A stretch of DNA of 64,000 bases from an uncultured Planctomycetales bacterium (GTDB lineage: Bacteria; Omnitrophota; Gorgyraeia; Zapsychrales; JANLHA01). Positions within the stretch are counted from its first letter, which is position 1. The number at the start of each line of letters is the position of its first letter. A program made the translations under genes and the position numbers. The DNA lies in the NCBI GenBank assembly GCA_964595465.1, contig CAZQQI010000007.1, forward strand, positions 3,930-67,929, read 5' to 3'. Of the stretch, positions 22,685 through 42,500 are shown one piece after another. The notes beneath the pieces were generated by a model. The model was not told the DNA's origin. It made no database searches and saw only the letters and a program-made list of their open reading frames with translations.

Positions 22685-23134
22685 AACTCAACTAAATAAA
22701 TCTGACTCTTTGAAAAAATAAATGGGTATGACGGATACGATAATGCTTTCGTGTGCCATTTTGCAGGCGAATGGCTCAGGAAGATCGGGAGAGACTCGTT
22801 CGCTCAAACAACCTCCCGAACGTTTTTATAATGACCCGTTCGGTTCGGAACTCGCTCTGCGTGTCCCTCCCGATCTTTTTTATCGCCATTCGAGCAGAAA
22901 CTGTTTAAATACGAAACATCACATTATCCTTTGTTTTATCCACGCAAAAGTTCATAGAGCCATAAATCTACGTAATTCTTTCGATTACCAACTTTTTTCC
23001 ACTATATTGGCATTAATATTGCTTCAGTTTAGAGTGGGTAAAGCAATTTATGTTGAATTAACGTTTTGTTTACATTGCCCCTTGTTTTTTTGCCTGTTTT
23101 TCCGGCATACTTATGAAAATCTGTAAACGGTGTT

Positions 23135-24799: not shown

Positions 24800-24833
24800 T
24801 GCGTACCGGGTGATACAGGGGTAACATAAGCAT

Positions 24834-26039: not shown

Positions 26040-26232
26040 AAAAAATGTTATATTTATTTAATTATCTTTCGGAGTAAAAATACAGCGGATAATGTGCTGA
26101 ATCATTTAAGGGAGGGCGGACTGACAAATGGTACCAATATGATCGATTATGACCTCTCAGCCTGCAGCACTTGGAATAGAACATGAAAAAATAGCGATAA
26201 CAACGATAACGAAAAAAATAAGGAGCAAGAAA

Positions 26233-26559
26233 ATGAAAAAGATGAATACACAAGGGTTTTCATTGGTAGAGGTCCTGGTCGTTTTAGCGATCATCGGAGC
26301 GTTGGTCGCGATGATCCTGCCGAACGCTTTTCGCGCTATGAATCAGTCTGACAGCACCCGTTCAACTGCTTCGGACCGTGCTGTCGAGGCGGCTTACGCG
26401 GCCTGCCGTCTGGATAACAACACCGATCATACAGCTTGTGATACCGCAGCTGAATTAGCACCGTACGTTGACGGGACCATTCCGAATTCGTGTACGATTA
26501 CAGGGGTTGATCAGGACGGCGACGGTACGGATGACAGCATAAACGTCACCGGATGTTAA
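26233..26559 (+). CDS. Type IV major pilin / pseudopilin with a class III signal peptide.
   Basis: The leader MKKMNTQG precedes the mature FSLVEVLVVLAIIG, with Glu at +5. A C-terminal disulfide loop lies between C...C. Start is taken at ATG 26233 with the RBS aaggagc. The long upstream ORF extension is rejected. Confidence 0.8.
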   Translation: MKKMNTQGFSLVEVLVVLAIIGALVAMILPNAFRAMNQSDSTRSTASDRAVEAAYAACRLDNNTDHTACDTAAELAPYVDGTIPNSCTITGVDQDGDGTDDSINVTGC

Positions 26560-26602
26560 ATTCCGTTTTGGTGCGTTTATCAGCGACTAAGGACGATCAT
26601 TT

Positions 26603-28120: not shown

Positions 28121-28742
28121 ATCGCGTATTATCATAGCCGCTGTTGTTTTGTGTCTTGCCTTTGCCGGCGTGTGTGTTTATATCGGCTGGCAAAGCTATC
28201 GATCCTTTTATCAACTGCAGGTGGATCGGCAGGCGCATGAGAATCGCATTGTCAAATTGAAAAAAGATATCCGCGAGATTAAATCTTTTATCAAACGGTA
28301 TAAGCGCGATAACGAAGAATTTCAGAAATTTTTATTCAAAGAAAAAGATGTCCCGGAATTCCTGGAGGGAGTCTCTCAGTTTGCCGGTAAGGCGGGAGTC
28401 GATATTATCGATATGAAAACTCAGAAGTTTGAAGAAGTCCGCTCCGCGTATGTGAAGCAGGCGCAGTCCCCTGTGGTCCAACGGCGAATGCGGAAGCGCG
28501 TCGGGGAGGACAGCCAAAAGCAGAGAATGGAGGAATTTACCCTGGCGGCTATGCCGGTCCACATTACGGTTAAGGGAGAGTTTGAAGCGTTCGTGTATTT
28601 TCTGAGTTATTTGGAAAAATTCAAACAATTGATCACGGTCAACGCTGTTGAGATCGCATCCGGTACGGATTACCCGGTTTTACGGTATTCGTTCACCGTG
28701 AAGATCTACAGCTTGAAGACTGTGGAAGATCTTATGGAATGA
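28107..28742 (+). CDS. PilO / GspM-like inner-membrane pilus alignment protein.
   Basis: An N-terminal TM helix, a coiled coil and a C-terminal ferredoxin-like region are present. The start overlaps the upstream gene. Confidence 0.5.
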   Translation: MSMNKSRIIIAAVVLCLAFAGVCVYIGWQSYRSFYQLQVDRQAHENRIVKLKKDIREIKSFIKRYKRDNEEFQKFLFKEKDVPEFLEGVSQFAGKAGVDIIDMKTQKFEEVRSAYVKQAQSPVVQRRMRKRVGEDSQKQRMEEFTLAAMPVHITVKGEFEAFVYFLSYLEKFKQLITVNAVEIASGTDYPVLRYSFTVKIYSLKTVEDLME

Positions 28743-28746
28743 TGAT

Positions 28747-29199
28747 ATGAAACGGAAATTTATTTTTATGATGATCGTTGTCCTGTTCGCAGGCTGCGGT
28801 TATATGGATGCGGGTGAGGACAGGCCTGCGGCATTAGAACAGGAAGACCAGCGCGTTGTTGAACGGATCGAAGATCCCCGGCTGGCCAAGCTGATTTTGA
28901 CGCCGAAAGAGTATAGGGTTGATATTTCCCGTGACCCTTTTAAGCCGCTGATCAGCCGTGAGAAAAATATGGAAAAAAAGAGTGACCCCCAGAGCGAGGC
29001 TATTGAACGGATGGAGTATTTAGGGAGTGTTCAATTCGGAGATGATGTTCAGGCCTTACTCAAGAGTCAAACTCAAACGGGTGTCTATCGTTCGGGCGAT
29101 GTGATCGGCCCATATACAATTGATTCTATTAAGGTGGATGAAATCCGGTTTTCTCATCGCGATTCCGGGGAAGCCGTTGTCTTAAAAAGGAGAGAATGA
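28747..29199 (+). CDS. PilP-like lipoprotein.
   Basis: A lipobox (FAGCG) and the conserved RDPF motif (SRDPFKPL) are present, followed by a C-terminal beta domain. Confidence 0.5.
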   Translation: MKRKFIFMMIVVLFAGCGYMDAGEDRPAALEQEDQRVVERIEDPRLAKLILTPKEYRVDISRDPFKPLISREKNMEKKSDPQSEAIERMEYLGSVQFGDDVQALLKSQTQTGVYRSGDVIGPYTIDSIKVDEIRFSHRDSGEAVVLKRRE

Positions 29200-29200
29200 T

Positions 29201-30805
29201 ATGTGTTATAAATTTAAGTGTTTGGTCATGATGGCCGTGATCAGTTTTATATGCCCGCCGGGAATGGCAGCAGCTCAGAATTTTGCTTCGACGGCTCAGG
29301 AGCAGAGTTCTGAATCCGGCGATGTGCTGGCTCAGCTGGAGAATATGGAGACGATGATCACGGAGCAGGAACAGCAGGTCGAGCAGCTGAAAACCCGGGA
29401 TATTCCTAAGGATGATGTCGCGCCAGCGGCTGTGGTGGAGCGGGAGATGAGTATGGAGGAACAGCAGGCTTATTGGCAGCAGGACGTTGCTGATCAGAGT
29501 ATTCCGGATATCAAGAAACGTCTCAGGATCGATGCGGCTTTTCGGGAGGCCAAGGAATTCATGAAGCAGGTCGACCAGGATTTGGAAAATGTTCCGCAGC
29601 GTGTCGAAAAAGACGTTATTTACGAAATTAAGACCCCGGAAGAGATCATTCGTGGTGTGATCCCGGAAGAGGTCGCCGGCCGTGAGATCGATCTGGATTT
29701 TGACGAGACCCCGCTGGAAGATGTTTTAATGACGTTAGGGGCCAGTGCCGAGGTGAATATCATGCTTGATCCGTCTTTACGCGGAAAAACGCTGGATCTT
29801 CATCTGAAATCTGTGACCGTTGAGCATGCTTTGCTGCTTATCGCCCAGCCGTTTGATCTGGGGTTTAAGCAGATCGGGAATTCCCTGCTGGTCACCGAAC
29901 GTCAAAAATTGCGGAATGAGACTCTTGAATCCAAGGTCTTCACCCTGCGCAATATCAGCGCGGACCAGGTCGAGATCCTGGTGCGGGATATGGTCGAGAC
30001 GGTCAATATTAGTCCGGACATTAACAGCCTTCTGGTCATGGGGTCTCCCCAGGAGATCCGCAAGGTCGAACGAATCATAAAAGAGGTCGATAAGCCTCAG
30101 CTGCAGGTTATTCTTGAGGCTAAGATCGTAGAGGTCGACAAGGGGGCGTTAAAACAATTGGGCGTGGATTGGTCAGATTCGATCTCGCTTTCGTATCAGG
30201 AAAGCGGCCGCCCCAATGAGTTTGATACGACAGAAGATGCCCCGGATAATCCCTTTAAGATCTTTCAGCTTTCACGCAGCGCTTTGCAGTTTGATACGGT
30301 CTTAAAAATGCTGGAGACGCAGGATAAGGCAAAAGTTTTGTCTAATCCTCGGGTGGCGACTATGAACGACCGTCAGGCGGAGATATTTGTCGGAGACCGC
30401 ATTCCGTATACGGTCACGACCGTGTCCGGGGGAGTCGCGACCACAGATGTCCGTTTTGAAGAGCCCGGGATCCGCTTGCAGATCACCCCTTCGATCATCG
30501 ACGAGGATTTTGTTGTCATTAAGGTCGAACCGGAAGTGAGTTACATTTTTTCATTCCGGGGAGATGCCGATGAATATCCCTGGACCAAAAAGCGCAGCGC
30601 GACGGCATATGTGAGGGTGAAGAACAATCAGCCGTTTGTCATGGGCGGACTGTTAAGCCAGCAGGATAAAGAGACGTTATACAAGGTGCCGTTTTTGGGA
30701 GATATTCCGCTCATCGGCAATTTGTTTAATTATGATGACAGAACCCTGGAAGATGTTGAATTGATCATTACCGTCGTTCCCAAGATCGTCCGGGGAGAAG
30801 AATAG
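29201..30805 (+). CDS. pilQ: Secretin (PilQ/GspD family) outer-membrane channel.
   Basis: It has a signal peptide and N-domains. The C-terminal secretin motif is VPFLGDIPLIGNLF...ELIITVVPKIV. Confidence 0.85.
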   Translation: MCYKFKCLVMMAVISFICPPGMAAAQNFASTAQEQSSESGDVLAQLENMETMITEQEQQVEQLKTRDIPKDDVAPAAVVEREMSMEEQQAYWQQDVADQSIPDIKKRLRIDAAFREAKEFMKQVDQDLENVPQRVEKDVIYEIKTPEEIIRGVIPEEVAGREIDLDFDETPLEDVLMTLGASAEVNIMLDPSLRGKTLDLHLKSVTVEHALLLIAQPFDLGFKQIGNSLLVTERQKLRNETLESKVFTLRNISADQVEILVRDMVETVNISPDINSLLVMGSPQEIRKVERIIKEVDKPQLQVILEAKIVEVDKGALKQLGVDWSDSISLSYQESGRPNEFDTTEDAPDNPFKIFQLSRSALQFDTVLKMLETQDKAKVLSNPRVATMNDRQAEIFVGDRIPYTVTTVSGGVATTDVRFEEPGIRLQITPSIIDEDFVVIKVEPEVSYIFSFRGDADEYPWTKKRSATAYVRVKNNQPFVMGGLLSQQDKETLYKVPFLGDIPLIGNLFNYDDRTLEDVELIITVVPKIVRGEE

Positions 30806-30876
30806 TATTTTTCCGATCCAGCAATATTCTTCAGGCCCCGTCAGCGATGGCGGGGTTTTTTCTTAAAGAGGAGATC

Positions 30877-33138
30877 ATGCGCAATTTTTCAAAGGAACAA
30901 GGGCGTCAGGGATTTTCGCTGGTCGATGTTTTGGTCGGGACAGTGATCCTGTTCACTGTGGCGGGGTTCGGGCTGACGGCCAGCCGGGCGTTACGGTATT
31001 CTCATGAGATCGCCCGGAACAATCTCACCGCCACAAATCTTCTTCAGCAAAGCCAGGAAGAACTGCGGTATGCCATTGGGATCGGGAACAATTATGATTC
31101 GATCCAAGCCTGTGATTTTCCGGCGCCGGGGGAAGACGCGGCCTGCGGATTAGAGGCCCATGATCCCGTTATTTTTCCGGGAATGGAGCGTCACTATGAG
31201 ATCGATTTTATTGCCGGCAGTACAGAGCTAAAAAAAGCTACGGTTTCTGTGCGCTGGCAGGGGGTAATGGGAAGTCCGCGCCAGGTTCAATCAGTGATGC
31301 TGCTGGCCCGTCCGCCGGATCCTTTGCCGGCGAATCTTTATGGTCTGGTGAGCAATGCTCTGACCGGCCGTCCAGTCCGCGGAGCGCGGATTGTCCTGAA
31401 TCATGAAAGACAGGATGTGGTGCCCCTTTCGAGTGTAACCAGTGCGGAAGAAGACGGTATCAATTATGATTTCAGTGATCCTTCGACCGGGATTTACCGG
31501 CTTGAGACAGGTTCCTGGAGCGTCGAAGTGACGCATCGGGATTATGAAACCTTCGGTCCGGTGAACATTGTGCCTCATTTGGTTAACAATGAGTCCCGTC
31601 GTTATGATATCGAACTTGATCCTAAGCCGCGCGCGTATCTGCGGGTTAACATTGTGGACTTGGCCGGAAGCCCTGTGACCCTGCATGATCGGGATACCAC
31701 GCTCAGGGCTTATCATGACGGAGGAATTTTAACAGATCATGCGTCTCAAAAATGTGAAGTGAGGGGAGGCGGATTGCGTTCTGTGGAGTGGGAGTTTACG
31801 GATGAGCAGATCTCCGGAGGAGAATTAGCTGTTACGGTGAACACTTCTGACGCTTATCAGTCTTTTTATGTGGGCGATTTTGACTGTGATTCATATGCCG
31901 GGACCAGCCTGTGTGCCGACGGGTGGTCGTCATCTTTTTCTGCCGGTCACAGCTGGAACGGAGGCGGGGACGGTGATACCGTCATCCTGCGTATCGGAGA
32001 AACCACAGAAGTGGATGTTCCTTTACGGCCTGTTCCGCAGGCTGTTGTTTACGGTCAGTTCACATTGTCCGGACAGCCATTAACGCGCAGCGCGGCTCTC
32101 TATATGAAGACCAGCAGGTGGGCTTCTATCCATAGTTACGCGTCGTCTCGCTGTGACCCCGCGCAGGGACATTTTCCTTGTAACGGGATACGCACTACGG
32201 CGACAGGGACCTACCGCCTGCCGGTCCCGGCTCTGCAGGAGTTTTTGCCGGATACCGCTACGCATCAGCTGCGTATTCAGGCCAGAGAGATCTGGGCGGA
32301 TGTCGAACAATGCTGTCAAACGGTCGAGCAGACCCGTCTTTATGATTCGTACCGTTATCTTGACGCAGATGGCGAGGGAAGCCGGTCTTTATTATCCGGA
32401 ACGATAGAACAATATAACACGGACAAGGTGCCTCCGCCGCCGTATGTCTGCGGCGATGTTGAAGGTGAGGTCTTTGATGATAAAACCGGTGATCCCATTG
32501 TCAGCGGGGCGGTTCAGCTTTCTTACGGGGGGCGAGAATCTACCGACGGATCCGGAGATTATGAATATGTCTGTCCGGACCCGATGTTTGATGAACAGGG
32601 TAACCAGACAGCCTTCCGCGTTAAAAAAGGGAATAACGCATTATATGCCTGGAAAGGCGGGTATTATTCTTATCGTATGCCGGGGAATCTTTGGTATGAC
32701 AGCGGATCGTCTTATTTATATGTGAAGGAAAATGAGCGGATCGATGCCGGGCGCATTGAACTGTGGCCGCGGGGATACGGCGACCTGAGAGTTACTGTTC
32801 TGGATGCCGATACGGCGGAGCCGTTAAACGGGATGACTGTGGATCTTTCGTATTACAGTAGTGCCGGTCCTGGTGATCCGTCAGCTTTGACAACGGATGA
32901 TGCCGGAAGCGTTCTGTTTTCGCGGGTTCTGGAGACCTGGCCGCCGGAGGATCTTCCGGAAACCGGATACAAGACCACGGTACGTCGGCACAGCGCGGCC
33001 GCGGAGGATCCGGCGGGAAGATATCTTCAGGTTAACCGCGATGCCCAAGACCGGCCGGTACCGTACCCGGTTTCTGTGATTGCGGACGGCCTGCAGACAC
33101 TGACAATACTTATGGAGGATACCGGTGGCGGGATGTGA
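30877..33138 (+). CDS. Very large (753 aa) prepilin-type protein: an N-terminal pseudopilin helix fused to a Cys-rich extracellular region. It is a candidate tip adhesin or minor pilin.
   Basis: The GFSLVDVLVGTVILFTV cleavage/methylation motif lies after a short leader. Start is chosen at ATG 30877. Downstream are more than 700 aa with many Cys and carboxypeptidase-regulatory-like beta repeats. Confidence 0.55.
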   Translation: MRNFSKEQGRQGFSLVDVLVGTVILFTVAGFGLTASRALRYSHEIARNNLTATNLLQQSQEELRYAIGIGNNYDSIQACDFPAPGEDAACGLEAHDPVIFPGMERHYEIDFIAGSTELKKATVSVRWQGVMGSPRQVQSVMLLARPPDPLPANLYGLVSNALTGRPVRGARIVLNHERQDVVPLSSVTSAEEDGINYDFSDPSTGIYRLETGSWSVEVTHRDYETFGPVNIVPHLVNNESRRYDIELDPKPRAYLRVNIVDLAGSPVTLHDRDTTLRAYHDGGILTDHASQKCEVRGGGLRSVEWEFTDEQISGGELAVTVNTSDAYQSFYVGDFDCDSYAGTSLCADGWSSSFSAGHSWNGGGDGDTVILRIGETTEVDVPLRPVPQAVVYGQFTLSGQPLTRSAALYMKTSRWASIHSYASSRCDPAQGHFPCNGIRTTATGTYRLPVPALQEFLPDTATHQLRIQAREIWADVEQCCQTVEQTRLYDSYRYLDADGEGSRSLLSGTIEQYNTDKVPPPPYVCGDVEGEVFDDKTGDPIVSGAVQLSYGGRESTDGSGDYEYVCPDPMFDEQGNQTAFRVKKGNNALYAWKGGYYSYRMPGNLWYDSGSSYLYVKENERIDAGRIELWPRGYGDLRVTVLDADTAEPLNGMTVDLSYYSSAGPGDPSALTTDDAGSVLFSRVLETWPPEDLPETGYKTTVRRHSAAAEDPAGRYLQVNRDAQDRPVPYPVSVIADGLQTLTILMEDTGGGM

Positions 33139-33628
33139 GCAGATAAAATGTTATGCGGGCAAGGACTTGCGTCGCGGCTATAGTTTGATCGAAATGATCG
33201 TATCGATGATGATCTTTTCTACTCTTGCTGTGGTCGGGGGGATGGTGTTTTTTAGCAATGTGGTCATGTTTGATAAGCGGATGTCCAGTGCAGATCTTTG
33301 GCAGGAGGCCAATGTCTTTATTGAAGCGGTCACTGAAGATGTCCGGGAGGCCTCCCGTGTGGATGTTCCCAGCGGTTCGGACGATGTATTAATCGGGTAT
33401 GACCGTGATGGAAATCAGGCGTTCCGTTATGAAATTGCTGATGACGGCAAGGTCCGCGCTCTCTCGGGACCCTGGGGCGGCACGGTCTTTACCCGGCGTG
33501 CCGATAGCAGTAAGAGCGGGTTTGAACATTACGGCAATATGATCGATGTGAGCATAACGCTTATTGATCCGTCTTTTGTTAAAGATATAGCGGTCGCGAC
33601 CGGGACACGCATTGTTCTGAGGAATTAA
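33125..33628 (+). CDS. Minor pseudopilin (GspJ/PilW-like).
   Basis: The prepilin motif RRGYSLIEMIVSMMIFS is present. The true start is probably an internal TTG or GTG near 33161, which would give the leader MRRG. Confidence 0.55.
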   Translation: MAGCEQIKCYAGKDLRRGYSLIEMIVSMMIFSTLAVVGGMVFFSNVVMFDKRMSSADLWQEANVFIEAVTEDVREASRVDVPSGSDDVLIGYDRDGNQAFRYEIADDGKVRALSGPWGGTVFTRRADSSKSGFEHYGNMIDVSITLIDPSFVKDIAVATGTRIVLRN

Positions 33629-34936
33629 ATGAGAAAAAAAACACTGAAAATGCGCAGGTACAGGAACGGATCAAAAGGACAGGCCTTGCTGGGGGCGCTG
33701 TTTGTTATCATTATGGTCTTCGGCTACCTCACGGCGGCTGTGATCCGTTCCAACAGTGATATGCATCAGGCCGAATTTCGTAAATATTCACAAGAGGCTT
33801 TTTATGCTGCTGACTCAGGTGTACAGTGGGCTCTCTTTAATTTCCGTCGAGATCCGAGCTGGGGGTGGACGACCGAAAGCGGAGTGCAGACCTTTGATAT
33901 CAATGTCGCAGCAGAGAATTTCAGTTATCCGGTGGAGGATTGGGATTGCCGTGTCAGTGTGGATGACGGCGGCGCCTGGAGGGGGTGGACCAGAACACGG
34001 CTGGTGACGTCTGTCGGCAGGGATCCCGGTCGGAATGTGAACCGGACGGTCGTCGCACGTATCGTGGTCGAGAATCCTGCGCGCTTTCTGGTCTCGACGC
34101 TGGGGGATCTTATCCTGGAGAATGGAGCGGATATTCACGCACCAATTTTGGCCCAGAACATTATTTTTCGCGGACCGGATATTGATTTTATTGATCATGA
34201 CGTTTTGGGGATAGAGGCCAAGGCGTATTACTTTAATGCTGTTTTTGGTGCCGACAGCACTGGTACGCCGTATTATAGCGTTTCCGATGTTGAGGAGACC
34301 GATCCGATTGTCTTTTCATCTGTTGATGAACAATATTTCAGAACTCTCGCCAATGATGTCCGTTTAGGGGGGATGGTCGAATATTCTGCTTTGCCGGAAA
34401 AACATATGACTCTTCAGAATTATTCTGAAGGGTTTTCCGGTGAAGGGGCCGGTCTGATCTTCAGTGAAGGGGATGTCTATGTACAGGGAAGGTACGATCA
34501 TTCTATGATGGTTGTGGCAAAGGGGGATATCCATATAGCCGGCTCCCTGGATGCGCAGCTGCCGGATTCTGGTCCGGCTCCCCAATTAGCGCTTTTTTCC
34601 CGGGGGGATATTCTCATTGATGATGGGGCTGTTGATGCTGAAGGAAATTTAACAATAGAAGCAATGCTTGTCGCTGACGGTCAGGAAGATGGCGGGGACG
34701 GAAGGTCGTACGGGGGTGTGGTCCGTGCGCTGGCAGAGAATAATGTTTTTAATCATTTAAACTTTTTCGGGACCATTGCGGCCCGGGGGGAAGGGACGGA
34801 AGGCGACAGTTCGGCTGTAACGCTTTCGGCATTTCGCACTCGCAGTTATACGTTTAATCCCGCTTTGAGCCAGGACAACACCCTGCCGTTCAACATTCCG
34901 CATTTTGTCAATATTCTTTCCTGGGAACGGCAATGA
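33629..34936 (+). CDS. GspK/PilX-like minor pseudopilin (435 aa).
   Basis: The N-terminal GQALLGALFVIIMV matches the GspK-type non-canonical prepilin helix. A large periplasmic domain follows. Confidence 0.5.
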   Translation: MRKKTLKMRRYRNGSKGQALLGALFVIIMVFGYLTAAVIRSNSDMHQAEFRKYSQEAFYAADSGVQWALFNFRRDPSWGWTTESGVQTFDINVAAENFSYPVEDWDCRVSVDDGGAWRGWTRTRLVTSVGRDPGRNVNRTVVARIVVENPARFLVSTLGDLILENGADIHAPILAQNIIFRGPDIDFIDHDVLGIEAKAYYFNAVFGADSTGTPYYSVSDVEETDPIVFSSVDEQYFRTLANDVRLGGMVEYSALPEKHMTLQNYSEGFSGEGAGLIFSEGDVYVQGRYDHSMMVVAKGDIHIAGSLDAQLPDSGPAPQLALFSRGDILIDDGAVDAEGNLTIEAMLVADGQEDGGDGRSYGGVVRALAENNVFNHLNFFGTIAARGEGTEGDSSAVTLSAFRTRSYTFNPALSQDNTLPFNIPHFVNILSWERQ

Positions 34937-34964
34937 AAAGCTTTTCCTTGACGCATTGTATATA

Positions 34965-34992
34965 TTGACAAAAGCAACACATTGAATACAAT
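34965..34992 (+). promoter_or_regulatory. Sigma-70-type promoter (TTGACA-16-TACAAT) in an AT-rich gap.
   Basis: TTGACA lies at 34965-34970 and TACAAT at 34987-34992, upstream of the XRE::CBM48 gene. Confidence 0.45.
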
Positions 34993-35075
34993 ATAAAAGT
35001 CATGTGTATATAGTTATATTTTTTTACAATGAATGCAGCGCAAGGTTAACAGAGCGTTAATCTGATCTCTCTCTT

Positions 35076-35516
35076 ATGATCGGCAGTAATCTTAAAAAAT
35101 TTCGACAGCAGAAAGGTTTGACTCAAAAAGATCTGGCCGATATTTTGGGTGTTTCCCGTCAGGCGGTCTGTCTTTGGGAGGCAGGTAAGCGTGAAGTCCG
35201 TGTGGGTTTTTTAAGTCTGCTGGCCGATATCTTAGGGATTACGGTCGATGAATTGGTCCGCTGCGGATCGGCCACAGGTTTTCAGTACTTGTCTGTTTCT
35301 GCTGTAGAGGTTGGCCTGGTTGGGGATTTTAATCATTGGGCGAAACCGTTGCCCTTGAAAAATGAAGGGAACGGTCTTTGGCGCATCACGCTCGATCTTA
35401 AACCCGGACGCTATGAATATAAATTTTATGTCGACGGAGAATGGTGCCTCGATCCGGAAAACGGCCAGACAGTCAGCAATCGTTACGGAACACAAAATTC
35501 TGTTGTGACGGTTTAG
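35076..35516 (+). CDS. Fusion of an XRE-family HTH DNA-binding domain with a CBM48 / AMPK-beta-like glycogen-binding module.
   Basis: The N-terminal LKKFRQQKGLTQKDLADILGVSRQAVCLWE is a classic Cro/C1 HTH. The C-terminal GDFNHWAKPLPL...WRITLDLKPGRYEYKFYVDGEWCLDP is the CBM48/E-set starch-binding signature. Confidence 0.7.
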   Translation: MIGSNLKKFRQQKGLTQKDLADILGVSRQAVCLWEAGKREVRVGFLSLLADILGITVDELVRCGSATGFQYLSVSAVEVGLVGDFNHWAKPLPLKNEGNGLWRITLDLKPGRYEYKFYVDGEWCLDPENGQTVSNRYGTQNSVVTV

Positions 35517-35552
35517 TTTACGGCTGCAGGTCACTTAAATGGCGAATACGAA

Positions 35553-36971
35553 ATGTTAAGCAGGGGACAAGAAAAGGAGAATACGGTGGCAGATAAAAAG
35601 AAAACGCCTAAAAAAACAACCAGGCAAACATCCGCTAAATCAAAGTCTAAAAAATCAGCCGTAAAAAAATCTCCGAAAAAGAAAACGGGTAAAAAGGCGG
35701 CGAAAAAGGCGGTAAAAAAATCCCCGCTCCAAAAGGGCGCGTCTGTAAAGAAGAAAACGGCAGTGAAAAAAAAGGGTTTATCCGCAAAAAAGAAAACCGT
35801 TGCGAAGAAAAAAAGCTTATCCGCAGAAAAGAAAACGACAGCGAAGAAAAAGAGCCCGGTTACCAATAAGAGGGTAAAGGGCATGATCCGTACCAACCTG
35901 GAGTATGCCTCCCGCGCCAAGCGTCCGGTCTTTATCGACAGCGAAGCCATGCCGGAAAGTTACGGCTCCACCAGTGTGGTCTTGATCGCGCGTGATCCCC
36001 GCTGGATCCATGCTTATTGGGAGATCGCCCCGTCCAGTATTGAAGAGGTCCGCGCGCGTTACGGAAAATCTGTCGACCGCGCTGTTAAAGTCCTGCGCAT
36101 GTATGACGTGACCATGATCAATTTTGACGGCCGTAATGCCAATCATATTTTTGATATTGAGGTGGGGGACGCTAATAATTGGTATGTGAATTTGCCTAAT
36201 GATCATGTCTCCTATTGCGCGGACATCGGCTTATTGACCCCGGAGAGTGATTTTTTTACGCTGGCCCGTTCGAATTTTGTGACGACCCCGCGTGCTCATG
36301 TGTCTCCCCGCAAAGAATTGGTCTGGATGGCTGTCGAGCCCGGGGCTGAACCAACGGCTTTTGTCTATGACGGAGAGGATCCCGCTCTGGAGACGGGTAA
36401 GACAAGTGTGCCTTCAGATGTCGTGATCGGCGAAGCGCATATCCGTGATTATTATTCACGGGTCTTTCCCTTGCTGCGCCGTGTCCTGATGCGGCATGCT
36501 TCTGAAGAAGGAGCCACAGCCCAAAGCGCGGTGGACGCTGCTTTGCAGTATATCGAAGACCAGGATATGATGGCCTATGATTATTTCCGCCGGATCCTGC
36601 TCGGAGCTTCTGAAGAAATGATGGAAAAGGGCCGTATGGGGGAAGAAGGTATCGGCGGAATTTCCAGTGAAGAATTGGCCCCTTCATCCTGGGGCGGGGC
36701 CTCGGAAGAGGGTGCACCAGGTCCGCAGAGCGGATTCTTTTTTGAGCTCGGTACGGAATTGATCGTTTATGGGCGGACCGAGCCTGACGCGAAAGTGGAG
36801 TGGGGTGGGAAACCGATCATGCTCCGAGAGGACGGGACCTTTACGCTAAGAATGGCCCTGCCCACGGATACGCATATTCCTCTGGATTTTACTGCTGTTA
36901 AGTATGATGGGCGGCATCGCCGTTCGATCAATACAGCCGCACAGCGGGACTCTACGGAATATAAAGAATAA
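35553..36971 (+). CDS. DUF4912-like protein with a long N-terminal histone-H1-like Lys/Ala-rich tail.
   Basis: The first ~110 aa are KKKT/AKKK repeats. The remainder carries a DPRWIHAYWEI-type motif that I associate with DUF4912 proteins found next to GH57 genes. Confidence 0.45.
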   Translation: MLSRGQEKENTVADKKKTPKKTTRQTSAKSKSKKSAVKKSPKKKTGKKAAKKAVKKSPLQKGASVKKKTAVKKKGLSAKKKTVAKKKSLSAEKKTTAKKKSPVTNKRVKGMIRTNLEYASRAKRPVFIDSEAMPESYGSTSVVLIARDPRWIHAYWEIAPSSIEEVRARYGKSVDRAVKVLRMYDVTMINFDGRNANHIFDIEVGDANNWYVNLPNDHVSYCADIGLLTPESDFFTLARSNFVTTPRAHVSPRKELVWMAVEPGAEPTAFVYDGEDPALETGKTSVPSDVVIGEAHIRDYYSRVFPLLRRVLMRHASEEGATAQSAVDAALQYIEDQDMMAYDYFRRILLGASEEMMEKGRMGEEGIGGISSEELAPSSWGGASEEGAPGPQSGFFFELGTELIVYGRTEPDAKVEWGGKPIMLREDGTFTLRMALPTDTHIPLDFTAVKYDGRHRRSINTAAQRDSTEYKE

Positions 36972-37003
36972 TGTAACGGATATTTTCTGAAGACCTTTTT
37001 TTC

Positions 37004-38638
37004 GTGGTCTTATTTGAATATGTTAGGAGCAGTATGGCCCAGGGTTATCTTTCATTGGTTCTGCACGCGCACCTGCCTTTTGTCCGGCATCCGGAAGAAG
37101 AGTATTTCCTTGAAGAGAACTGGCTGTATGAGGCGATCACCGAGACCTACCTGCCTTTGCTGATGACGCTGGAACAGCTGGTCCGGGACGGGGTGTATTT
37201 CCGTCTGACTTTGTCGCTTAGTCCTACATTGGTCAGCATGTTGAGGGACCCTTTTTTACAAGAGCGGTATATCCTTCATTTGGACCGCATGATCGAACTG
37301 GCCGGCCGGGAGATCGAACGGACCGGTTTCGATGCCCGGTATCATGGATTAGCCCTGATGTATCATCGTCGTTTTGTTGATTTTCGTCATATGTTCTGCG
37401 AGACCTATCAGCGGGACCTGGTCGGTGCGTTCAAATACTTTCAGGATACGGGCTGTTTGGAGATCATGACCAGCTGTGCGACACATGGATTCCTGCCGAT
37501 TTTGGCCGTTAATCCGCGGGCAGCTGAGGCCCAGATCCGTATCGGTGTCGACTCGTATACAGAAGTATTCGGACGTCCGCCGCGCGGGATCTGGCTGCCG
37601 GAATGCGGCTTTGTCCCGGGCATCGACACGATGCTTAAGCGGGTCGGGATCAGATATTTCATAGTGGATTCCCACGGTCTGATGTATTCAGATCCGCGCC
37701 CTAAATATGGGATCTTTGCGCCGGTCTATACACCTGCGGGGGTTGCTGCTTTCGGCCGGGATTGGGAATCGTCCAAACAGGTTTGGAGTGCCAAAGAGGG
37801 ATATCCCGGGGATCCGGCCTATCGCGAATATTATCGGGATATCGGCCATGAACTGGAATATGAATACGTCAGGCCGTATATTGATCCGGCCGGCACCCGT
37901 GTCAATACCGGTCTGAAGTATTGGCGGGTAACGGGGCAGACCGCGGCCAAAGAGCCTTACCGTCCGGATATTGCCAGGGAAAAGGCGGCGGAGCACGCCG
38001 CGGATTTCATCGCCCGGCGGCAGTCTCAGGTAAGGGATCTTCATAATAGAATGCACCGTGATCCGATCATTGTCGCGCCTTACGATGCTGAACTTTACGG
38101 CCATTGGTGGTATGAAGGGCCTGTTTTTATGGATTTTCTTTTTCGTAAACTGGCTTTTGATCAGTCACTGATCCGTCCCGCGACGCCGACAGAATATCTT
38201 ACGGCTTACCGTGTGAACCAAATGGCCATGCCGTCATCTTCCAGCTGGGGTTATAAAGGTTACAGTGAGTATTGGCTGGATAAAAGCAACGACTGGATCT
38301 ACCGGCATATCCATAAGGCAGCTGAACGTATGCAGGAGCTGGCCGTTAAATTCAGCACAGAGATACAGAATCCCAAGGATTCTGTGACAAAGCGGGCACT
38401 TAATCAGGCGGCACGGGAACTTTTGTTGGCTGAATCCAGCGATTGGCCCTTTATTATGCGGACCGGGACGATGGTGGCATATGCCCAACGCAGGATCCGT
38501 CTGCATATTTCCCGGTTTACCCGTTTATATGATGATTTGCTGGAGAAAAACATATCGGAAGAATGGTTGACAGAAATCGAAGAACGCGATAATCTCTTTT
38601 CTGATATGGAATGTGCCCGTTATTATCTCCCTGAATGA
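37004..38638 (+). CDS. GH57 family alpha-glucan enzyme, probably a 1,4-alpha-glucan branching enzyme (DUF1957-containing).
   Basis: GH57 signatures are present: LVLHAHLPF near the N-terminus, a GIWLPECGF nucleophile region and a C-terminal helical DUF1957-like region. Confidence 0.8.
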   Translation: MVLFEYVRSSMAQGYLSLVLHAHLPFVRHPEEEYFLEENWLYEAITETYLPLLMTLEQLVRDGVYFRLTLSLSPTLVSMLRDPFLQERYILHLDRMIELAGREIERTGFDARYHGLALMYHRRFVDFRHMFCETYQRDLVGAFKYFQDTGCLEIMTSCATHGFLPILAVNPRAAEAQIRIGVDSYTEVFGRPPRGIWLPECGFVPGIDTMLKRVGIRYFIVDSHGLMYSDPRPKYGIFAPVYTPAGVAAFGRDWESSKQVWSAKEGYPGDPAYREYYRDIGHELEYEYVRPYIDPAGTRVNTGLKYWRVTGQTAAKEPYRPDIAREKAAEHAADFIARRQSQVRDLHNRMHRDPIIVAPYDAELYGHWWYEGPVFMDFLFRKLAFDQSLIRPATPTEYLTAYRVNQMAMPSSSSWGYKGYSEYWLDKSNDWIYRHIHKAAERMQELAVKFSTEIQNPKDSVTKRALNQAARELLLAESSDWPFIMRTGTMVAYAQRRIRLHISRFTRLYDDLLEKNISEEWLTEIEERDNLFSDMECARYYLPE

Positions 38639-38811
38639 GTTTCCCGGATCAAAGGAACTCCTATAAAAAACGCCTAATATATTGTTTTTATGTTAAAAAT
38701 ATTGCATACTTGAATAAGTATGTGCGAAGTAAATTGATGTTGCTTGATAGATGCGGCCGTACGGGGGAATTGGTCTTAGCGTCTAAAAGGAAATTCTAAA
38801 AAGGACAGGAC

Positions 38812-39459
38812 ATGGTCTGCTTAAAAGAATCGCCCCTGCGGATAGAACGTGTTTGTTTTACGGATAATGACCGCATGCGTCATCTTTATCGGCTCCGTTT
38901 GAAAGTTTATGGCGAGCAATGTGGTTTTTTTAATATTGATGAGTATCCTGAAGGCGAAGAGCGGGATAAATATGATGCCCAATCCGCGCATTTTCTGATC
39001 CGCGACGGGTTAAGCCGGAAAATCCTGATCGCTGCCCGTCTGATCTTACCCGGAGCACATCGTCTGCCGGTTTTTGATCATGTTCCTGAATTGTACCGTC
39101 AGTATGCTTCCTGCACGAAGGCCTGTGCCGAGATTTCCCGATTTGTCTTAAATAAATCTGCTTATTTTGATTATCAAAAACGCAGAGCGGCGGCTTTGGG
39201 GGGCGTCCCTACACTTGCGGTCTATCGTGAGATGTTCTCCATTCTCTATGCCCAGTTGTATCAGCGGGCGGTTGAATCGGGTATTCAGCATGGTTTTGCT
39301 CTGATGGAGAAGGGTCTTTACCGTTTGGCCAAATTGCAGGGGTTCTCTTTTGCGCCGGTCGGAGAGACCATTGATGTTTACGGCCCGGTCAAGCCGTATT
39401 ATCTTGAAGTCGCGTCTTTGGGCTATCTCCAGCAATATGCTGCCGCGCAGAACAATTGA
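38812..39459 (+). CDS. GNAT-fold N-acyltransferase of the LuxI / N-acyl amino acid synthase-like family, possibly of the exosortase-associated acyltransferase type.
   Basis: The 215-aa size, the HFLIRDGLSRKILIAARL core and the single-domain architecture fit. It lies 46 bp upstream of the giant gene on the same strand. An operator-like palindrome sits at 38705-38722. Confidence 0.4.
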   Translation: MVCLKESPLRIERVCFTDNDRMRHLYRLRLKVYGEQCGFFNIDEYPEGEERDKYDAQSAHFLIRDGLSRKILIAARLILPGAHRLPVFDHVPELYRQYASCTKACAEISRFVLNKSAYFDYQKRRAAALGGVPTLAVYREMFSILYAQLYQRAVESGIQHGFALMEKGLYRLAKLQGFSFAPVGETIDVYGPVKPYYLEVASLGYLQQYAAAQNN

Positions 39460-39505
39460 TAATACAATTTGATAGCATCGTAGAATATTCAACAAAGGAT
39501 TTGTC

Positions 39506-42500
39506 ATGACAGAAGCGCATCGGCACAAGCATCCTCTGCTTAAATTTATATCGCTCGTTCTCGCAACAGTCTTTTTAACCACCACAATTCTTCCGCCTCG
39601 GTTGGCCCGGGCGCAGGTCCTGCCGACCCTGCCGGTCCCCGGAACCCTTTTGAGCACCTCACAGGGGTATGTTCCGCTTTTGCTCAAGGGGATCCAGGTT
39701 GACCCGCAGAATCCGCTGTCCTTCAACTTTATTATGAATACCGGTGAACTGCGCGCCGATACCGATGGCCTGCGTGAAGAGATGCAGCGCCAGATCAAAT
39801 ATTTTCTGGCTTCGCTGACCGTGCCCGAGGCAGAGATGTGGGTCAACCTGTCGCCTTATGAAGGCGACCGTATCATCCCGGATGCCTTCGGGCAGACCGA
39901 GATGGGCATGGACCTGCTGGCCCAGGATTATCTGCTGAAACAGCTGACCGCCAGCCTGATGTATCCTGAAGAAGAACTGGGACAGGCCTTTTGGAAACGC
40001 GTGTATCAGCGGGCCGAAAAAGAGTTCGGGACGCGGGATATTCCGGTGGATACCTACAACAAGGTCTGGATCGTGCCTGAAGACGCCACGGTCTTTCAGA
40101 AAGACGGCAGTGCTTATGTGATCGAGAGCAGTCTGAAGGTCATGCTGGAAGAGGATTATGTGGCCAAGATGGAAGGCCGCCAGGTCAGCCGCAGCAGCAG
40201 TGTTCAGGATATTGATGCTCAGATCATCCGTGAAGTGATTATTCCTGAAATTGAACGGGAAGTCAATGAAGGGCAGACCTTTGCTAAACTGCGGCAGATC
40301 TATCAGGCCATGATCCTCGCGACCTGGTATAAGATCAACCTGCGGGAGACTTTGCTCGGCCGGATCTATGTGGACCGCAATAAAGTCGCCGGGGTTGACA
40401 CCGCAGACAAACAGCTCAAAGAAAAAATTTATCAGCAGTATATAGACGCCTTTAAAAAAGGTGTCTACAACTATATTAAGGAAGAGCAAGATCCGGTATC
40501 CGGTCAGATCATCCCGCGGAAATATTTTTCCGGCGGGTTTACGACAGATGAAGCCCTGCTGACTACTGTGCAGGGCAGCCTGATCGACGGGAATGGCGGA
40601 TTGGCGCCTTATCAGCAGGAGCAAATCGTAACATCCTTGGGCACATTCGCCGCCGGGAGCCGTACCATTGCGGTCGATGTTAACCTGGTTGAAGATCCCG
40701 CAGCTAAAGGATGGTCGCAGGTCGTCACGGCCGAGACCTTCAGCCGAGATGCCCAGGGTCTTGTCCGCGCGGATGCCGCCATGCTGACAGAAAACAGCAA
40801 GGATTATTTGCGAGACAATAATCCGGAGCTTCTGCACAATGTTGATAACGGTAATTTTTCGCCCGAGCAGGTCGAGGCAATTAATATTATGGTCGACATC
40901 GGTAATGCCGGTATACTCAAAGAGAGTTCTAACGTTGGAGGGCTGTTAGACCAAGTGGCCCGACGGGATAAGACCTATCCGACCGGGCTCCGAGGATATC
41001 ATGCAAATGCTGCTAGAAAGATGAAAATTTTTTATGAGGGCGGCAATCCCATGGCCGATGTCATCAAGATCAGTGCCCCTGCGACAAAAGATCTTACGTC
41101 GGCAGATTCTGAAACTCTTAATGTGCTGAATCGTGAAGGTTTAAAGGTTGTTAATAAAACAGTCTTTGTCATGCCAGCCGGGGGGCTGGGGGAACGGCTT
41201 GGCTATGGCGGATTAAAGTTGGATCTGCCGCTGGATTCGCTTACTCGGAAATCGTATTTGCAGATGTATGCAGAAAATATCCTGGCGCTACAAGAAAGGT
41301 CAAATAATTTAAATGGAGAAGATGAACGCATTCCTTTGGTGATGATGACCTCGGCAGACAATCATCAGCGGACCCTGGATTTTATTCAGAAAAACAATCT
41401 GTTCGGCATGGATGGGCTGACGGTTATTGATGTGACCAAGGATATTGCGGTCTATGATGCTGGCGCGGGAAAGGTCGTGGTTGCGGATCGCAGGGCATAT
41501 GAAGATCGTAATGAGATCGTTAACCCCCGTGATATCGGTCAAATGGTGATCTTTCAGCAGGATTCTGTTTTTGCTTTTACAGGAGAGGATGCTAAGTTTG
41601 TTCTGCAGGAAGATGGTCTTATTAAAGAAAAACCTCATAATCATGGAGATATCGAACTGCTTTTACATCTTTCCGGTGTGGCTAAAGCCTTTGAACAGGC
41701 CGGCAAGAAGCAGAGCCTCTTTTTCCAGGATACTAACGGAGAGGCCTTTAATGCGGTCCTGCCCGGATTGGGGGCATCGGTTACAGAAGGATACAAGGTA
41801 AATTTATTGGCCGTCGAACGCAAGCCCGGGGATGCTGTTGGAGCCATTGCCGAGATGACCCTTGAAAATGGGACGACACAGGTCGGGAATATCGAATATA
41901 ACGATGTGCCGAATGTCGCCAAAAATTATGGTCTTCCAGAAGAAAATTTTTCTTCAGGGAATATCAACATCTTTATTGTTAACCAGCAGGCATTGGCCGC
42001 TGCACTGGATGAAACTAATGGTTTAATGCCGGAGATTGTTAACCCCAAGCCGGATACCGGAGAAGCTCGCTTAGAAGCCATGATGCAGGATATCGCCAAA
42101 GCTGTTCCCGGTTCTCAGGTAGGGGTCACGTCATTCCCGGTAAGAATGATCTTTGCCGCCACCAAAAATGCTTTACCCCGGGCCTTGAGTAAGGTTGAAA
42201 AGGGCAATTTCCCCGAGCACCTGGCTGCGACTGAAGGCGTTTATCATATGAACACGCGGGAGATGTTGGCCCGGGCTGGTGTTGAGATTAATCCAGAAGG
42301 GAATACGAGGTACGCATTTGAGGATCTTTTACAACCCGCCTTTGGGCTTGAATCAGAAGTTCCCGGTATTCCTTATCAGGACGGAGCGCGGATATCTCTT
42401 TCCCCGTTTTTTGCTCAGTCTGTTGAAGACATTCAGCAAAAGATGAAGGGCGTCAGCATCAGCGACCGGTCTTTTGTGGTGATTGAAGGGGAACGTGTTT

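Follow-up and report, generated by a model that had tools for sequence, protein, structure and literature searches.

An HTH-CBM48 fusion protein of Omnitrophota as a candidate autorepressor of an alpha-glucan operon, possibly titrated by its polymer

We know of no account of how a bacterium measures the size of its glycogen reserve. The glycogen controls described to date (CsrA, ppGpp, cAMP-CRP and allosteric control of GlgC) read, to our knowledge, metabolites and not the polymer. In eukaryotes, the CBM48 of the AMPK beta subunit is the classic candidate for a glycogen sensor. The window, a 64,000-nucleotide stretch of Omnitrophota DNA, contains a gene in which a module of this type is joined to a DNA-binding domain. 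The question raised by this locus is whether such a protein could read the polymer at a promoter.

The gene (35076..35516, plus strand) starts with ATG and encodes 146 aa. The XRE/Cro-C1 HTH domain occupies residues 1-62 (35076..35261, plus strand) and was recognized by Pfam HTH_3 (PF01381; residues 6-60, E 6e-15, 55.5 bits against a cut-off of 23). The AMPK-beta-type glycogen-binding module, CBM48, occupies residues 65-146 (35268..35513, plus strand) and was recognized by AMPK1_CBM (PF16561; residues 75-146, E 4e-16, 59.4 bits against a cut-off of 26.8) and CBM_48 (residues 53-123, E 1.4e-8, 35.3 bits against a cut-off of 22.4). In the structure model (pLDDT 90), the linker between the two was about three residues long. 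A Cro/C1-type HTH joined directly to a CBM48 was what the initial annotation had described, and the ORF and the quoted motifs (GDFNHW, residues 83-88; YEYKFYVDGEWCLDP, residues 113-127) were as given there. No membrane segment was found in the protein, and no sigma gene near the fusion gene.

The identical 146-aa product was present on three independently assembled contigs, from NCBI GCA_046542295.1 and from Logan assemblies (SRR11308339 among them). The same HTH plus CBM48 architecture recurred in many genomes, as about 31 further 90%-identity clusters with 36-56% identity. The fusion is therefore not an artefact of a frameshift or of assembly; a frameshift joining two separate genes, a doubt raised at the outset, was not seen. 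The family is small and nearly restricted to Candidatus Omnitrophota. The best 150 matches of a profile search were mostly poly-CBM48 and poly-HTH repeat proteins, and the only single-stretch full-length fusions among them were P0198, P0204, P0208 and P0212, so that the search gave no dependable size for the family.

The C-terminal half modeled as a beta-sandwich of the CBM48/E-set fold, as had been anticipated. Its best PDB match by Foldseek was 1z0m, the glycogen-binding domain of AMPK beta1, with 38% identity (1z0m_C: E 6.6e-10, target-normalised TM 0.90, rmsd 1.5 Å over 82 columns), and the CBMs of SEX4 and SNF1 were also matched. Among 32 homologues with 41-56% identity, W88, K116 and N141 were invariant, and W123 was kept in at least 90%. 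In AMPK beta1, the counterparts of W88, K116, W123 and N141 in the alignment are the W in FNNW, the K in YKF, the W in DGQW and the N in GTVNN, respectively. In the 1Z0M work, the residues of AMPK that contact sugar are reportedly W100, K126, W133 and N150. The module thus appears intact, with conserved residues at the sugar-contact positions of AMPK, and would be expected to bind glucan in vivo.

The model of the HTH domain showed the five helices of a lambda-repressor-like fold (residues 2-12, 17-24, 28-35, 43-53 and 57-61; pLDDT 85-94). In the region of helices 2 and 3, it aligned one to one with dh434, a designed derivative of the DNA-binding domain of 434 repressor. T16, Q17, S27, R28 and Q29 were invariant or almost so across the family, and the last four align with Q17, D27, Q28 and Q29 of dh434. 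In 434 repressor, DNA is contacted through these positions, which lie where helix 2 begins and within the recognition helix. Neither Pfam nor the structure model revealed a dedicated dimerization domain in the window protein.

Two co-directional genes follow, one 36 bp after the fusion gene and the other 32 bp further on. The first (35553..36971, plus strand) encodes a DUF4912 protein (DUF4912 E 2e-33, residues 137-253) with a Lys-rich N-terminal tail. Its start codon is uncertain; the gene callers gave 362 or 461 aa against 472 aa for the ORF. The tail resembles histone H1, and Pfam HC2 matches the orthologue in locus L006. We found no paper on the function of DUF4912. The second (37004..38638, plus strand) encodes a glucan branching-type enzyme with GH57 and BE_C domains (PF03065 E 9e-35; PF09210 E 1.5e-36). 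It scored 362 and 316 bits with the NCBIfam branching-enzyme models, under their equivalog cut-offs, and was 61-70% identical to its cluster orthologues. A GNAT-type acyltransferase gene (38812..39459, plus strand; TIGR03694, 108.7 bits against a cut-off of 111.95; Acetyltransf_5), 173 bp beyond the GH57 gene, is possibly the last gene of the unit. No such gene was found beside the cluster in other loci, and it is peculiar to the cluster version of the window genome.

The initial annotation had placed the fusion at the head of an operon with a DUF4912-like protein and a GH57 branching-type enzyme. Both genes were confirmed, and the cluster proved to be conserved. In about 20 loci, the fusion is the first gene of a cluster of GT4 synthase, DUF4912, GH57 branching enzyme and GH57-like protein (18/18 distinct loci with downstream DNA). 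The sole exception was L016, in which the fusion lies downstream of a GT5 GlgA. The DUF4912 gene was a member of the cluster in all loci with downstream DNA. The window cluster lacks the GT4 synthase, which is present in all other loci, and also the GH57-like gene. That GT4 genes adjoining GH57 genes may be unrecognised glycogen synthases has been raised as speculation in a review (PMC11046441).

The modules also occur apart. Ten Omnitrophota loci have a CBM48-only protein as the first product of this cluster, and L083 has an HTH-only protein in that place. In 11 long-linker homologues, a canonical AAGGAGG-ATG was retained inside the linker. Members of the window clade have lost this internal start, and only a few residues of linker remain. 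Neither a riboswitch nor any other known RNA was matched in Rfam at E <=1 within 34000-40000, which covers the 80-nt leader and the cluster.

The fusion gene is preceded by a sigma-70-type promoter, TTGACA-16-TACAAT (34965..34992, plus strand). It matched the consensus at 11 of 12 positions, in agreement with the near-consensus promoter noted earlier. About 19 other loci likewise have a TTGACA...(T/C)A(T/C)AAT promoter in front of the orthologous gene. The spacer of this family promoter carries an 18-nt bipartite motif, of which a second copy is often found in the leader. The motif (GTTAACAnnnTGTGnCAt) was conserved across loci together with the near-consensus promoter.

Two candidate operators were scored in the window with a weight matrix trained on other genomes only. 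O1 (AGCAACACATTGAATACA; 34973..34990, plus strand; 9.0 bits) lies inside the promoter spacer, where the orthologous loci have GTTAACAnnnTGTrnCA. Weak as a site alone, O1 gains support from its position. It partly overlaps a TGn extended -10 element, so part of its conservation may reflect promoter function. O2 (GTTAAC-AGAGC-GTTAAT, a 17-bp palindrome; 35045..35062, plus strand; 10.3 bits) lies within the leader and precedes the ATG by 14-31 bp; in orthologues, the equivalent site precedes it by 26-70 bp. The spacing between O1 and O2 was 72 bp in the window and 70-72 bp in L001, L006, L009 and L010.

O2 was a perfect match to the clade pattern GTTAACNNNNNGTTNAY. The candidate operator may be an inverted or a direct repeat. 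Sites of the window clade form the 17-bp palindrome RTTAAC-N5-GTTNAY; those of the long-linker clade are invariant at AAC (positions 4-6) and GT (positions 12-13) only. With at most one mismatch, the palindrome pattern of the clade gave 5 hits in the window against 0.99 expected, and none of 100 shuffles reached 5. A window-wide regulon search with the weight matrix gave no enrichment (7 hits at >=10 bits, against about 8 in shuffles).

Matrices built with one locus left out each time placed the best match of the whole locus, on both strands, within 300 bp upstream of the fusion in 18/21 loci. These included L016, in which no site had been picked beforehand. Upstream of the HTH-only gene of L083, the motif was found at -44 with 15.7 bits, whereas upstream of the ten CBM48-only cluster heads it did not exceed 7.2 bits. 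The motif therefore tracks the HTH rather than the cluster. A role as a transcription factor is thus supported by a predicted promoter and operator-like motif that co-occur with the HTH across about 20 divergent loci, and the HTH would be the part that binds the bipartite motif. Repressors classically bind at sites that overlap a strong promoter or lie in the leader.

We interpreted the protein, tentatively and with a little less than even confidence, as an autorepressor of the glucan operon that is drawn off the DNA by glucan binding, which de-represses the genes. As a one-component regulator, it would bind the bipartite operator of about 17-18 bp through its XRE-type HTH. From O1, in the spacer of its own strong promoter, and O2, in the leader, it would repress itself and the co-transcribed alpha-glucan genes. 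These would be the DUF4912 and GH57 branching enzyme genes in the window, and those of the GT4 synthase, DUF4912, GH57 and the GH57-like protein in relatives; because the window cluster has no GT4 synthase, a reduced gene set would be regulated there.

The CBM48, about three residues from the HTH, would bind glycogen or malto-oligosaccharide chains. With alpha-glucan present, the protein would be pulled onto the polymer and off the DNA, and the operon would be de-repressed. The repressor is itself the first product of the operon, and free repressor would be back only once the glucan binding sites were filled, so that the supply of enzymes would be scaled to the amount of glucan. Judging from the model, a linker of only three residues makes it sterically unlikely that the protein could sit on a glycogen particle and on DNA at once. 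The initial annotation had offered two mechanisms, the coupling of transcription to glucan status and the sequestration of the regulator on granules, and we rank sequestration above sensing. Repression, glucan binding by the CBM48 in vivo and release of the DNA upon glucan binding are steps that we infer.

Against titration, either module can hold this operon position by itself (CBM48 in the ten loci, HTH in L083). This, together with the internal AAGGAGG-ATG in the 11 long-linker homologues, suggested that the CBM48 may serve glucan synthesis in a separate role. The operator sites of the window are also weak (9.0 and 10.3 bits), and matrix hits are not enriched across the window.

The separate modules would suit a Rosetta-stone fusion, in which the HTH would simply repress its own operon, the CBM48 would help the synthase and branching machinery by binding glycogen or by targeting, as in the CBM48-only relatives, and the fusion would serve co-expression with no coupling of signals. 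The HTH-only gene of L083 has the same promoter and motif, and free CBM48 is probably made as well from the internal SD-ATG of the 11 long-linker fusions. The plant PTST/FLO6 proteins are CBM48 proteins able to act as targeting scaffolds (PMC13475482). On the other hand, over 30 lineages have kept the fused form, at identities as low as 36%, and the shrunken linker and lost internal start of the window clade suggest that the joined form is selected for. A protein bound to DNA would also be a poor granule-targeting factor, and vice versa. We consider such an uncoupled fusion unlikely, at about one chance in a few.

Release triggered by the product would mean that a synthesis operon is under positive feedback, a less intuitive arrangement than a negative loop. 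The intuitive logic would be obtained if glucan were a co-repressor: multivalent alpha-glucan would cluster weakly binding monomers, raise the occupancy of the operators and perhaps bridge O1 and O2 across about 71 bp, and the synthesis genes would be off when glycogen is plentiful. The lack of a dedicated dimerization domain and the two operator copies 70-72 bp apart in five window-clade loci are in line with this. However, the HTH-only protein of L083 keeps the motif without a CBM48, which suggested that the HTH needs no glucan-mediated clustering. Many long-linker loci have one strong site only, and the three-residue linker, as modeled, speaks against joint binding of DNA and a bulky particle. 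We regard the co-repressor as improbable.

Still less probable, and in our view a slim chance, is a structural tether that would anchor glycogen granules to the chromosome for positioning or inheritance in the manner of PhaM, without control of transcription. DNA-binding and polymer-binding modules do share one polypeptide, and the adjoining DUF4912 protein with its histone-H1-like tail (HC2 match in the L006 orthologue) would fit. However, in about 18 genomes the sites fall exactly within the promoter spacer and the leader of the operon that encodes the protein, which is the signature of regulation. An anchor with one or two sites per genome region would be a poor one, and the very short linker disfavors simultaneous binding.

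That the protein is an artefact or a misassigned family (a frameshift fusion, the antitoxin of a toxin-antitoxin pair or a prophage repressor) has a negligible chance and is refuted as far as sequence evidence reaches: besides the identical ORF in three assemblies and the 31 homologous fusions, the NCBIfam HTH models of the HipB, RstR, PezA and MqsA type matched far under their cut-offs and over the generic HTH only (44.8 bits against 71.65 for the best type II antitoxin model among HipB, MqsA and PezA), no toxin gene adjoins the fusion gene, and no toxin or phage genes were found nearby.

Titration of an autorepressor by glucan, the interpretation we prefer, resembles the logic of PhaR (Cupriavidus/Paracoccus). 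PhaR represses at the promoters of granule-associated genes and is titrated off the DNA by PHB (PMC3079617). In both proteins, DNA-binding and storage-polymer-binding parts share one polypeptide, and glycogen would replace PHB in the proposed logic. The two-part architecture is present in the fusion, and the operators at the promoter are predicted. The resemblance is functional only, as homology is absent (no PhaR-family domain among the Pfam hits of the fusion). The fusion uses an XRE HTH, which is another DNA-binding fold, and its contact with the polymer would be a defined CBM48 sugar site, whereas that of PhaR is hydrophobic adsorption.

AMPK beta and the Snf1 subunits Gal83-Sip2 have the same CBM48, likewise on a regulatory protein and not on a glucan-acting enzyme. 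The AMPK CBM sits in a kinase complex, whereas that of the fusion sits directly on a bacterial DNA-binding domain, without a kinase or any other go-between.

With the small XRE/Cro-C1 repressors (434 repressor/Cro, the C-proteins of restriction-modification systems and HipB), the fusion shares the five-helix HTH_3 and the conserved DNA-reading positions. The 17-bp palindromic candidate operator of its clade is a further likeness, and the sites overlap its own promoter, implying autoregulation. We know of none of these repressors with a carbohydrate-binding module; their C-terminal parts, if any, serve dimerization or are peptidases.

Carbohydrate-binding modules serve as signal-input domains for transcription control in the RsgI-type anti-sigma factors of Clostridium thermocellum (PMC10328401). 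CBM48 was also found in anti-sigma-like, membrane-anchored proteins encoded directly after ECF sigma genes; P0050 and P0053 have a membrane segment and an adjoining ECF sigma gene. This position suggested that CBM48 is a sensor module elsewhere too. The RsgI-type proteins and the ECF-sigma/membrane-CBM48 pairs share with the fusion a carbohydrate-binding module as the sensor input. Both of these kinds are membrane proteins that respond to extracytoplasmic polysaccharide through a sigma factor, whereas the window protein is a cytoplasmic one that lacks a membrane segment, and it would sense a polymer inside the cell and bind DNA itself.

The CBM48 proteins PTST/FLO6 of plants are not enzymes themselves but partners of glucan synthases (PMC13475482). 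By analogy, they are a likely counterpart of the CBM48-only cluster heads of other Omnitrophota. PTST/FLO6 proteins differ from the fusion in being coiled-coil scaffolds of eukaryotic plastids without a DNA-binding domain.

No report of an HTH-CBM48 fusion was found among papers naming both 'CBM48' and 'helix-turn-helix', judged by title or abstract, and nothing was found on this protein in Omnitrophota. The protein may, though we hold this with less than even confidence, be the first bacterial transcription factor to read an intracellular storage polysaccharide through direct binding: a glycogen counterpart of PhaR that would set the expression of GT4, DUF4912 and GH57 by the amount of glucan. 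The long-linker genes may then yield both a full repressor and a free CBM48 that competes for glucan. If this is true, then, taken with the anti-sigma-like CBM48 proteins of the ECF loci, CBM48 would be a general signal-input module of bacterial transcription.

A CBM48 and a DNA-binding domain in 146 aa, with a predicted operator, make a minimal system in which the reading of a polymer at a promoter could be tested in vitro. The fusion also gives a handle on an uncharacterised and widespread glucan cluster of Omnitrophota (GT4, DUF4912, GH57 and GH57-like), and would offer synthetic biology a compact glucan-responsive switch. Two limits apply: the family hardly extends beyond one uncultivated phylum, and the coupling of glucan to DNA binding is one that we infer.

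A tentative third operator-like site (ATTAAC-GTTTT-GTTTAC; 23057..23074, plus strand) was found elsewhere in the window, 61-78 bp before a T2SSE/PilB-like gene that opens a pilus cluster (23135-34936). It was the top-scoring matrix hit of the window, with 16.2 bits, but scores of at least 16 bits were reached in 22% of shuffled windows. Over its 18 nucleotides, the stretch 23058-23075 is identical to O2 of locus L001. No flanking similarity to the upstream regions of the fusion was found past the 18-mer, which ruled out a plain duplicated promoter region. A promoter-like sequence, TTGGCA-17-TAGAGT, lies near this site at 23007-23035.

The 146-codon ORF at 35076–35516 (+) gave Pfam matches to HTH_3 at residues 6–60 (E 6e-15), AMPK1_CBM at residues 75–146 (E 4e-16) and CBM_48 at residues 53–123 (E 1.4e-8), all exceeding the curated cut-offs. 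The XRE-type HTH and the CBM48 of the initial annotation are joined in one reading frame. Three contigs that had been assembled independently, from the NCBI MAG GCA_046542295.1 (named Candidatus Omnitrophota) and from Logan assemblies, gave the identical 146-aa product in gene calls. This ruled out a frameshift artefact that had fused two separate genes.

An AlphaFold2 model built from 32 family members (mean pLDDT 90) contained five helices (residues 2–61), about three linker residues and a beta-sandwich (65–145). Its best PDB matches were the glycogen-binding domains of AMPK beta1 and beta2, followed by the CBMs of SEX4 and SNF1. The match to 1z0m_C (E 6.6e-10, target-normalised TM 0.90, rmsd 1.5 A, 38% identity) agreed with the CBM48 fold predicted for the C-terminal half. 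The putative sensor module is thus of the AMPK beta type.

In the HMMER alignment to AMPK beta1, W88, K116, W123 and N141 fell on the W of FNNW, the K of YKF, the W of DGQW and the N of GTVNN, respectively. These correspond to the AMPK beta1 sugar contacts W100, K126, W133 and N150 of the 1Z0M work. Across the family alignment (41–56% overall identity), W88, K116 and N141 were invariant, and W123 was at least 90% conserved. A 1:1 alignment paired the HTH with dh434, a protein designed from the DNA-binding domain of the 434 repressor. Residues T16, Q17, S27, R28 and Q29 were invariant or nearly so in the family; the aligned positions Q17, Q28 and Q29 read DNA in the 434 repressor. With both sets of positions conserved, the HTH and the CBM48 both look functional.

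The same fusion was present in other genomes. A protein search returned about 31 further full-length fusions (149–186 aa, 36–56% identity), with stand-alone CBM48 proteins ranking below them. Few of the fusions were named, and then only as 'helix-turn-helix domain-containing protein' or 'transcriptional regulator with XRE-family HTH domain'. When GTDB species genomes were searched, 15 full-length fusion loci (L009–L023) were recovered, nearly all titled Candidatus Omnitrophota.

Loci were examined by gene calls, and all of them were mapped by tblastn. Every fusion locus with downstream DNA followed a single order, apart from the cases given below: HTH-CBM48, a GT4/GT5-like glycosyltransferase, DUF4912, a GH57 branching enzyme and a protein of about 480 aa, which matched GH57 in L002. 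Two loci differed: L004 ended at a contig edge, and in L016 a GalT-like gene and a GT5 GlgA precede the fusion instead. In the window, profile matches (Pfam/NCBIfam) placed a DUF4912 protein (35553–36971, +) and a GH57 + BE_C branching-type enzyme (37004–38638, +) after the fusion gene, as first annotated. A GNAT-type acyltransferase (38812–39459), in this position only in this genome, and a 1673-aa UDPGP/NDK protein came next. The window was the only locus lacking the GT4 and 480-aa genes. No GT4 homologue was found in its 64 kb by tblastn, and no glgA, glgC or glgP among the 30 window ORFs scanned with Pfam.

The HTH and the CBM48 also occurred separately. In ten further Omnitrophota loci (L024, L027, L028, L029, L033, L038, L039, L054, L066 and L067), the GT4-DUF4912-GH57-GH57-like cluster starts with a CBM48-only protein of about 100–140 aa, which has a basic N-tail but lacks an HTH. 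In L083 this cluster was headed by a 67-aa HTH-only protein. Among the fusions, 11 with long linkers (L002, L005, L007, L013, L015 and L018–L023) had a Shine-Dalgarno-like sequence, canonical AAGGAGG in seven, 2–8 nt before an in-frame ATG within the linker DNA. This ATG lies where stand-alone CBM48 genes begin. It resembles a remnant of what were once two genes, and is probably a live start that also yields free CBM48. The clade of the window (with L001, L006, L009–L011 and L017) has short linkers and has lost the internal start. By eye, the CBM48-only heads of L027 and L054 come after an apparent LuxR-type C-terminus.

The near-consensus promoter assigned to the fusion gene was confirmed at 34965–34992 (TTGACA-16-TACAAT, 11/12 matches), and the consensus TTGACA...(T/C)A(T/C)AAT was common to the upstream regions of fusion genes. 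Their promoter spacers contained a motif, GTTAACAnnnTGTrnCA (O1), and many loci had a second copy (O2) 26–70 bp 5' of the ATG. Leave-one-locus-out weight matrices from 28 hand-picked sites were run over both strands of whole loci (up to 16 kb). In 18 of the 21 loci the best match fell in the 300 bp 5' of the fusion gene, including L016 (18.5 bits at −295), where no site had been hand-picked. The HTH-only L083 kept the family promoter and the motif (15.7 bits at −44). Scores in the 400 bp upstream of the ten CBM48-only heads did not exceed 7.2 bits, and other palindromes were present there instead (e.g. GGTAAATAAGCACTTTTGCTTATTTACC in L067). The motif tracks the HTH, not the cluster.

The candidate operators of the window, O1 (34973–34990, AGCAACACATTGAATACA, 9.0 bits) and O2 (35045–35062, GTTAACAGAGCGTTAATC, 10.3 bits), scored lower than the sites of other loci. 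Matrix matches were not enriched across the window; two of at least 9 bits inside the 140-bp intergenic region were expected about 0.03 times, as estimated from the window-wide scan. The O2 sites of this clade form a 17-bp palindrome, RTTAAC-N5-GTTNAY, and the O1–O2 spacing is 70–72 bp in the window, L001, L006, L009 and L010. The palindrome pattern was enriched in the window (5 matches against 0.99 expected; 5 reached in none of 100 shuffles). The leader matched no Rfam family. No recognisable Shine-Dalgarno sequence preceded the ATG (35060–35075, CTGATCTCTCTCTTATG); several orthologues have a GGAGG-like sequence there.

A near-consensus promoter calls for repression rather than activation, and sites within the spacer and leader are repressor positions. 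On these grounds the fusion protein was read as an autorepressor of the glucan operon. Simultaneous binding of DNA and a glycogen particle would be sterically unlikely, because an intact CBM48 lies three residues from the HTH. The best-supported model, rated tentatively at a little short of an even chance, is titration. Alpha-glucan would draw the repressor away from its operators and, since the repressor is the first product of the operon, enzyme output would scale with the available glucan.

The existence of CBM48-only and HTH-only variants, together with the internal start in long-linker fusions, favours a fusion of the Rosetta-stone kind, in which a regulator and a glucan-targeting accessory protein are joined with no coupling between them. 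We consider this rather unlikely. A role for glucan as a co-repressor that clusters the protein, with negative feedback as the outcome, seems improbable. A PhaM-like tether between granule and chromosome is very improbable.

For titration, the closest known system in function is PhaR, which PHB granules titrate from DNA (PMC3079617). The proposed logic is the same, but the fusion protein has no PhaR homology in Pfam. CBMs are known to feed transcription in the membrane RsgI anti-sigma factors (PMC10328401), whereas the fusion protein is cytoplasmic and would bind DNA itself. No description of an HTH + CBM48 combination was found in the literature searched. The component domains are ordinary HTH_3 and CBM48 members; a cytoplasmic CBM48 protein with predicted DNA binding would be a new form of one-component regulator. 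The fusion described in the initial annotation was confirmed. Its reading as a glucan-sensing regulator was supported as a hypothesis and is strengthened on the DNA-binding side.

The top matrix match of the window (16.2 bits) was at 23057–23074 (ATTAACGTTTTGTTTACA, palindrome ATTAAC-GTTTT-GTTTAC). Positions 23058–23075 were identical over 18 nt to O2 of L001, with no similarity in the flanks. By score alone the match was not significant (22% of shuffles attained 16 bits). It lies 61–78 bp 5' of a T2SSE/PilB-like gene, the first of a pilus-type cluster (23135–34936; T2SSE, T2SSF, pilins, PilN, PilO and secretin), and a promoter-like site (23007–23035) lies upstream. We compared 14952–35075 of the window with positions 1–8000 of L006, which share synteny: histidine kinase, porin (Porin_5), PstSCAB, PhoU, a CBS protein and the fusion in L006. 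Only in the window does the 12-kb pilus-type cluster separate PhoU from the fusion gene; in L006 the CBS-domain gene occupies that place. The difference points to an insertion or rearrangement beside the fusion gene. The operator-like site may have been displaced from elsewhere, or it may extend the regulon.

Moderate matrix matches of 9–16 bits recurred at one position inside the GT4 coding sequence of L013, L014, L015, L018, L019 and L020, roughly +720 to +780 relative to the start of the fusion gene. Operator mimicry by a conserved peptide motif is the probable cause, but an intragenic site is conceivable.

About 110 residues at the start of the DUF4912 ORF (35553–35950) form a histone H1-like tail rich in Lys, Ala and Ser (KKTPKKTT...AKKKSPV), which recalls the Lys-rich DNA-binding tail of PhaM. 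Whether the tail is translated is uncertain (gene callers gave 362 or 461 aa for the 472-aa ORF). The L006 orthologue matches Pfam HC2.

The acyltransferase scored just under the cut-off of TIGR03694 (108.7 against 111.95 bits), the PEP-CTERM/exosortase-associated acyltransferase family. The 1673-aa ORF (39506–44527), directly 3' of the cluster, has a UDP-glucose-pyrophosphorylase-like region (residues 521–631) and a nucleoside-diphosphate-kinase domain (1207–1343), and could supply sugar nucleotides for the glucan pathway. Downstream of the cluster in L001 (14313–16462) is a gene for a 1909-aa protein, an unusual fusion of alanine-dehydrogenase/PNT domains and a starch-synthase (GT5) catalytic domain.

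CBM48 proteins of about 200–240 aa with a membrane segment were found directly 3' of ECF sigma genes in Gemmatimonadota and others. Two such proteins, P0050 (JGI 3300042731) and P0053 (L090, 2501–3127), have an N-terminal cytoplasmic part, one membrane segment (by eye) and a C-terminal CBM48; an ECF sigma gene (Sigma70_r2 + r4_2) immediately precedes each. The N-terminal part of P0050 matched zf-HC2 weakly. From the membrane segment and the position after ECF sigma genes, these proteins probably act as anti-sigma factors that sense alpha-glucan. They are common in Gemmatimonadota-type genomes and were grouped with the RsgI factors.
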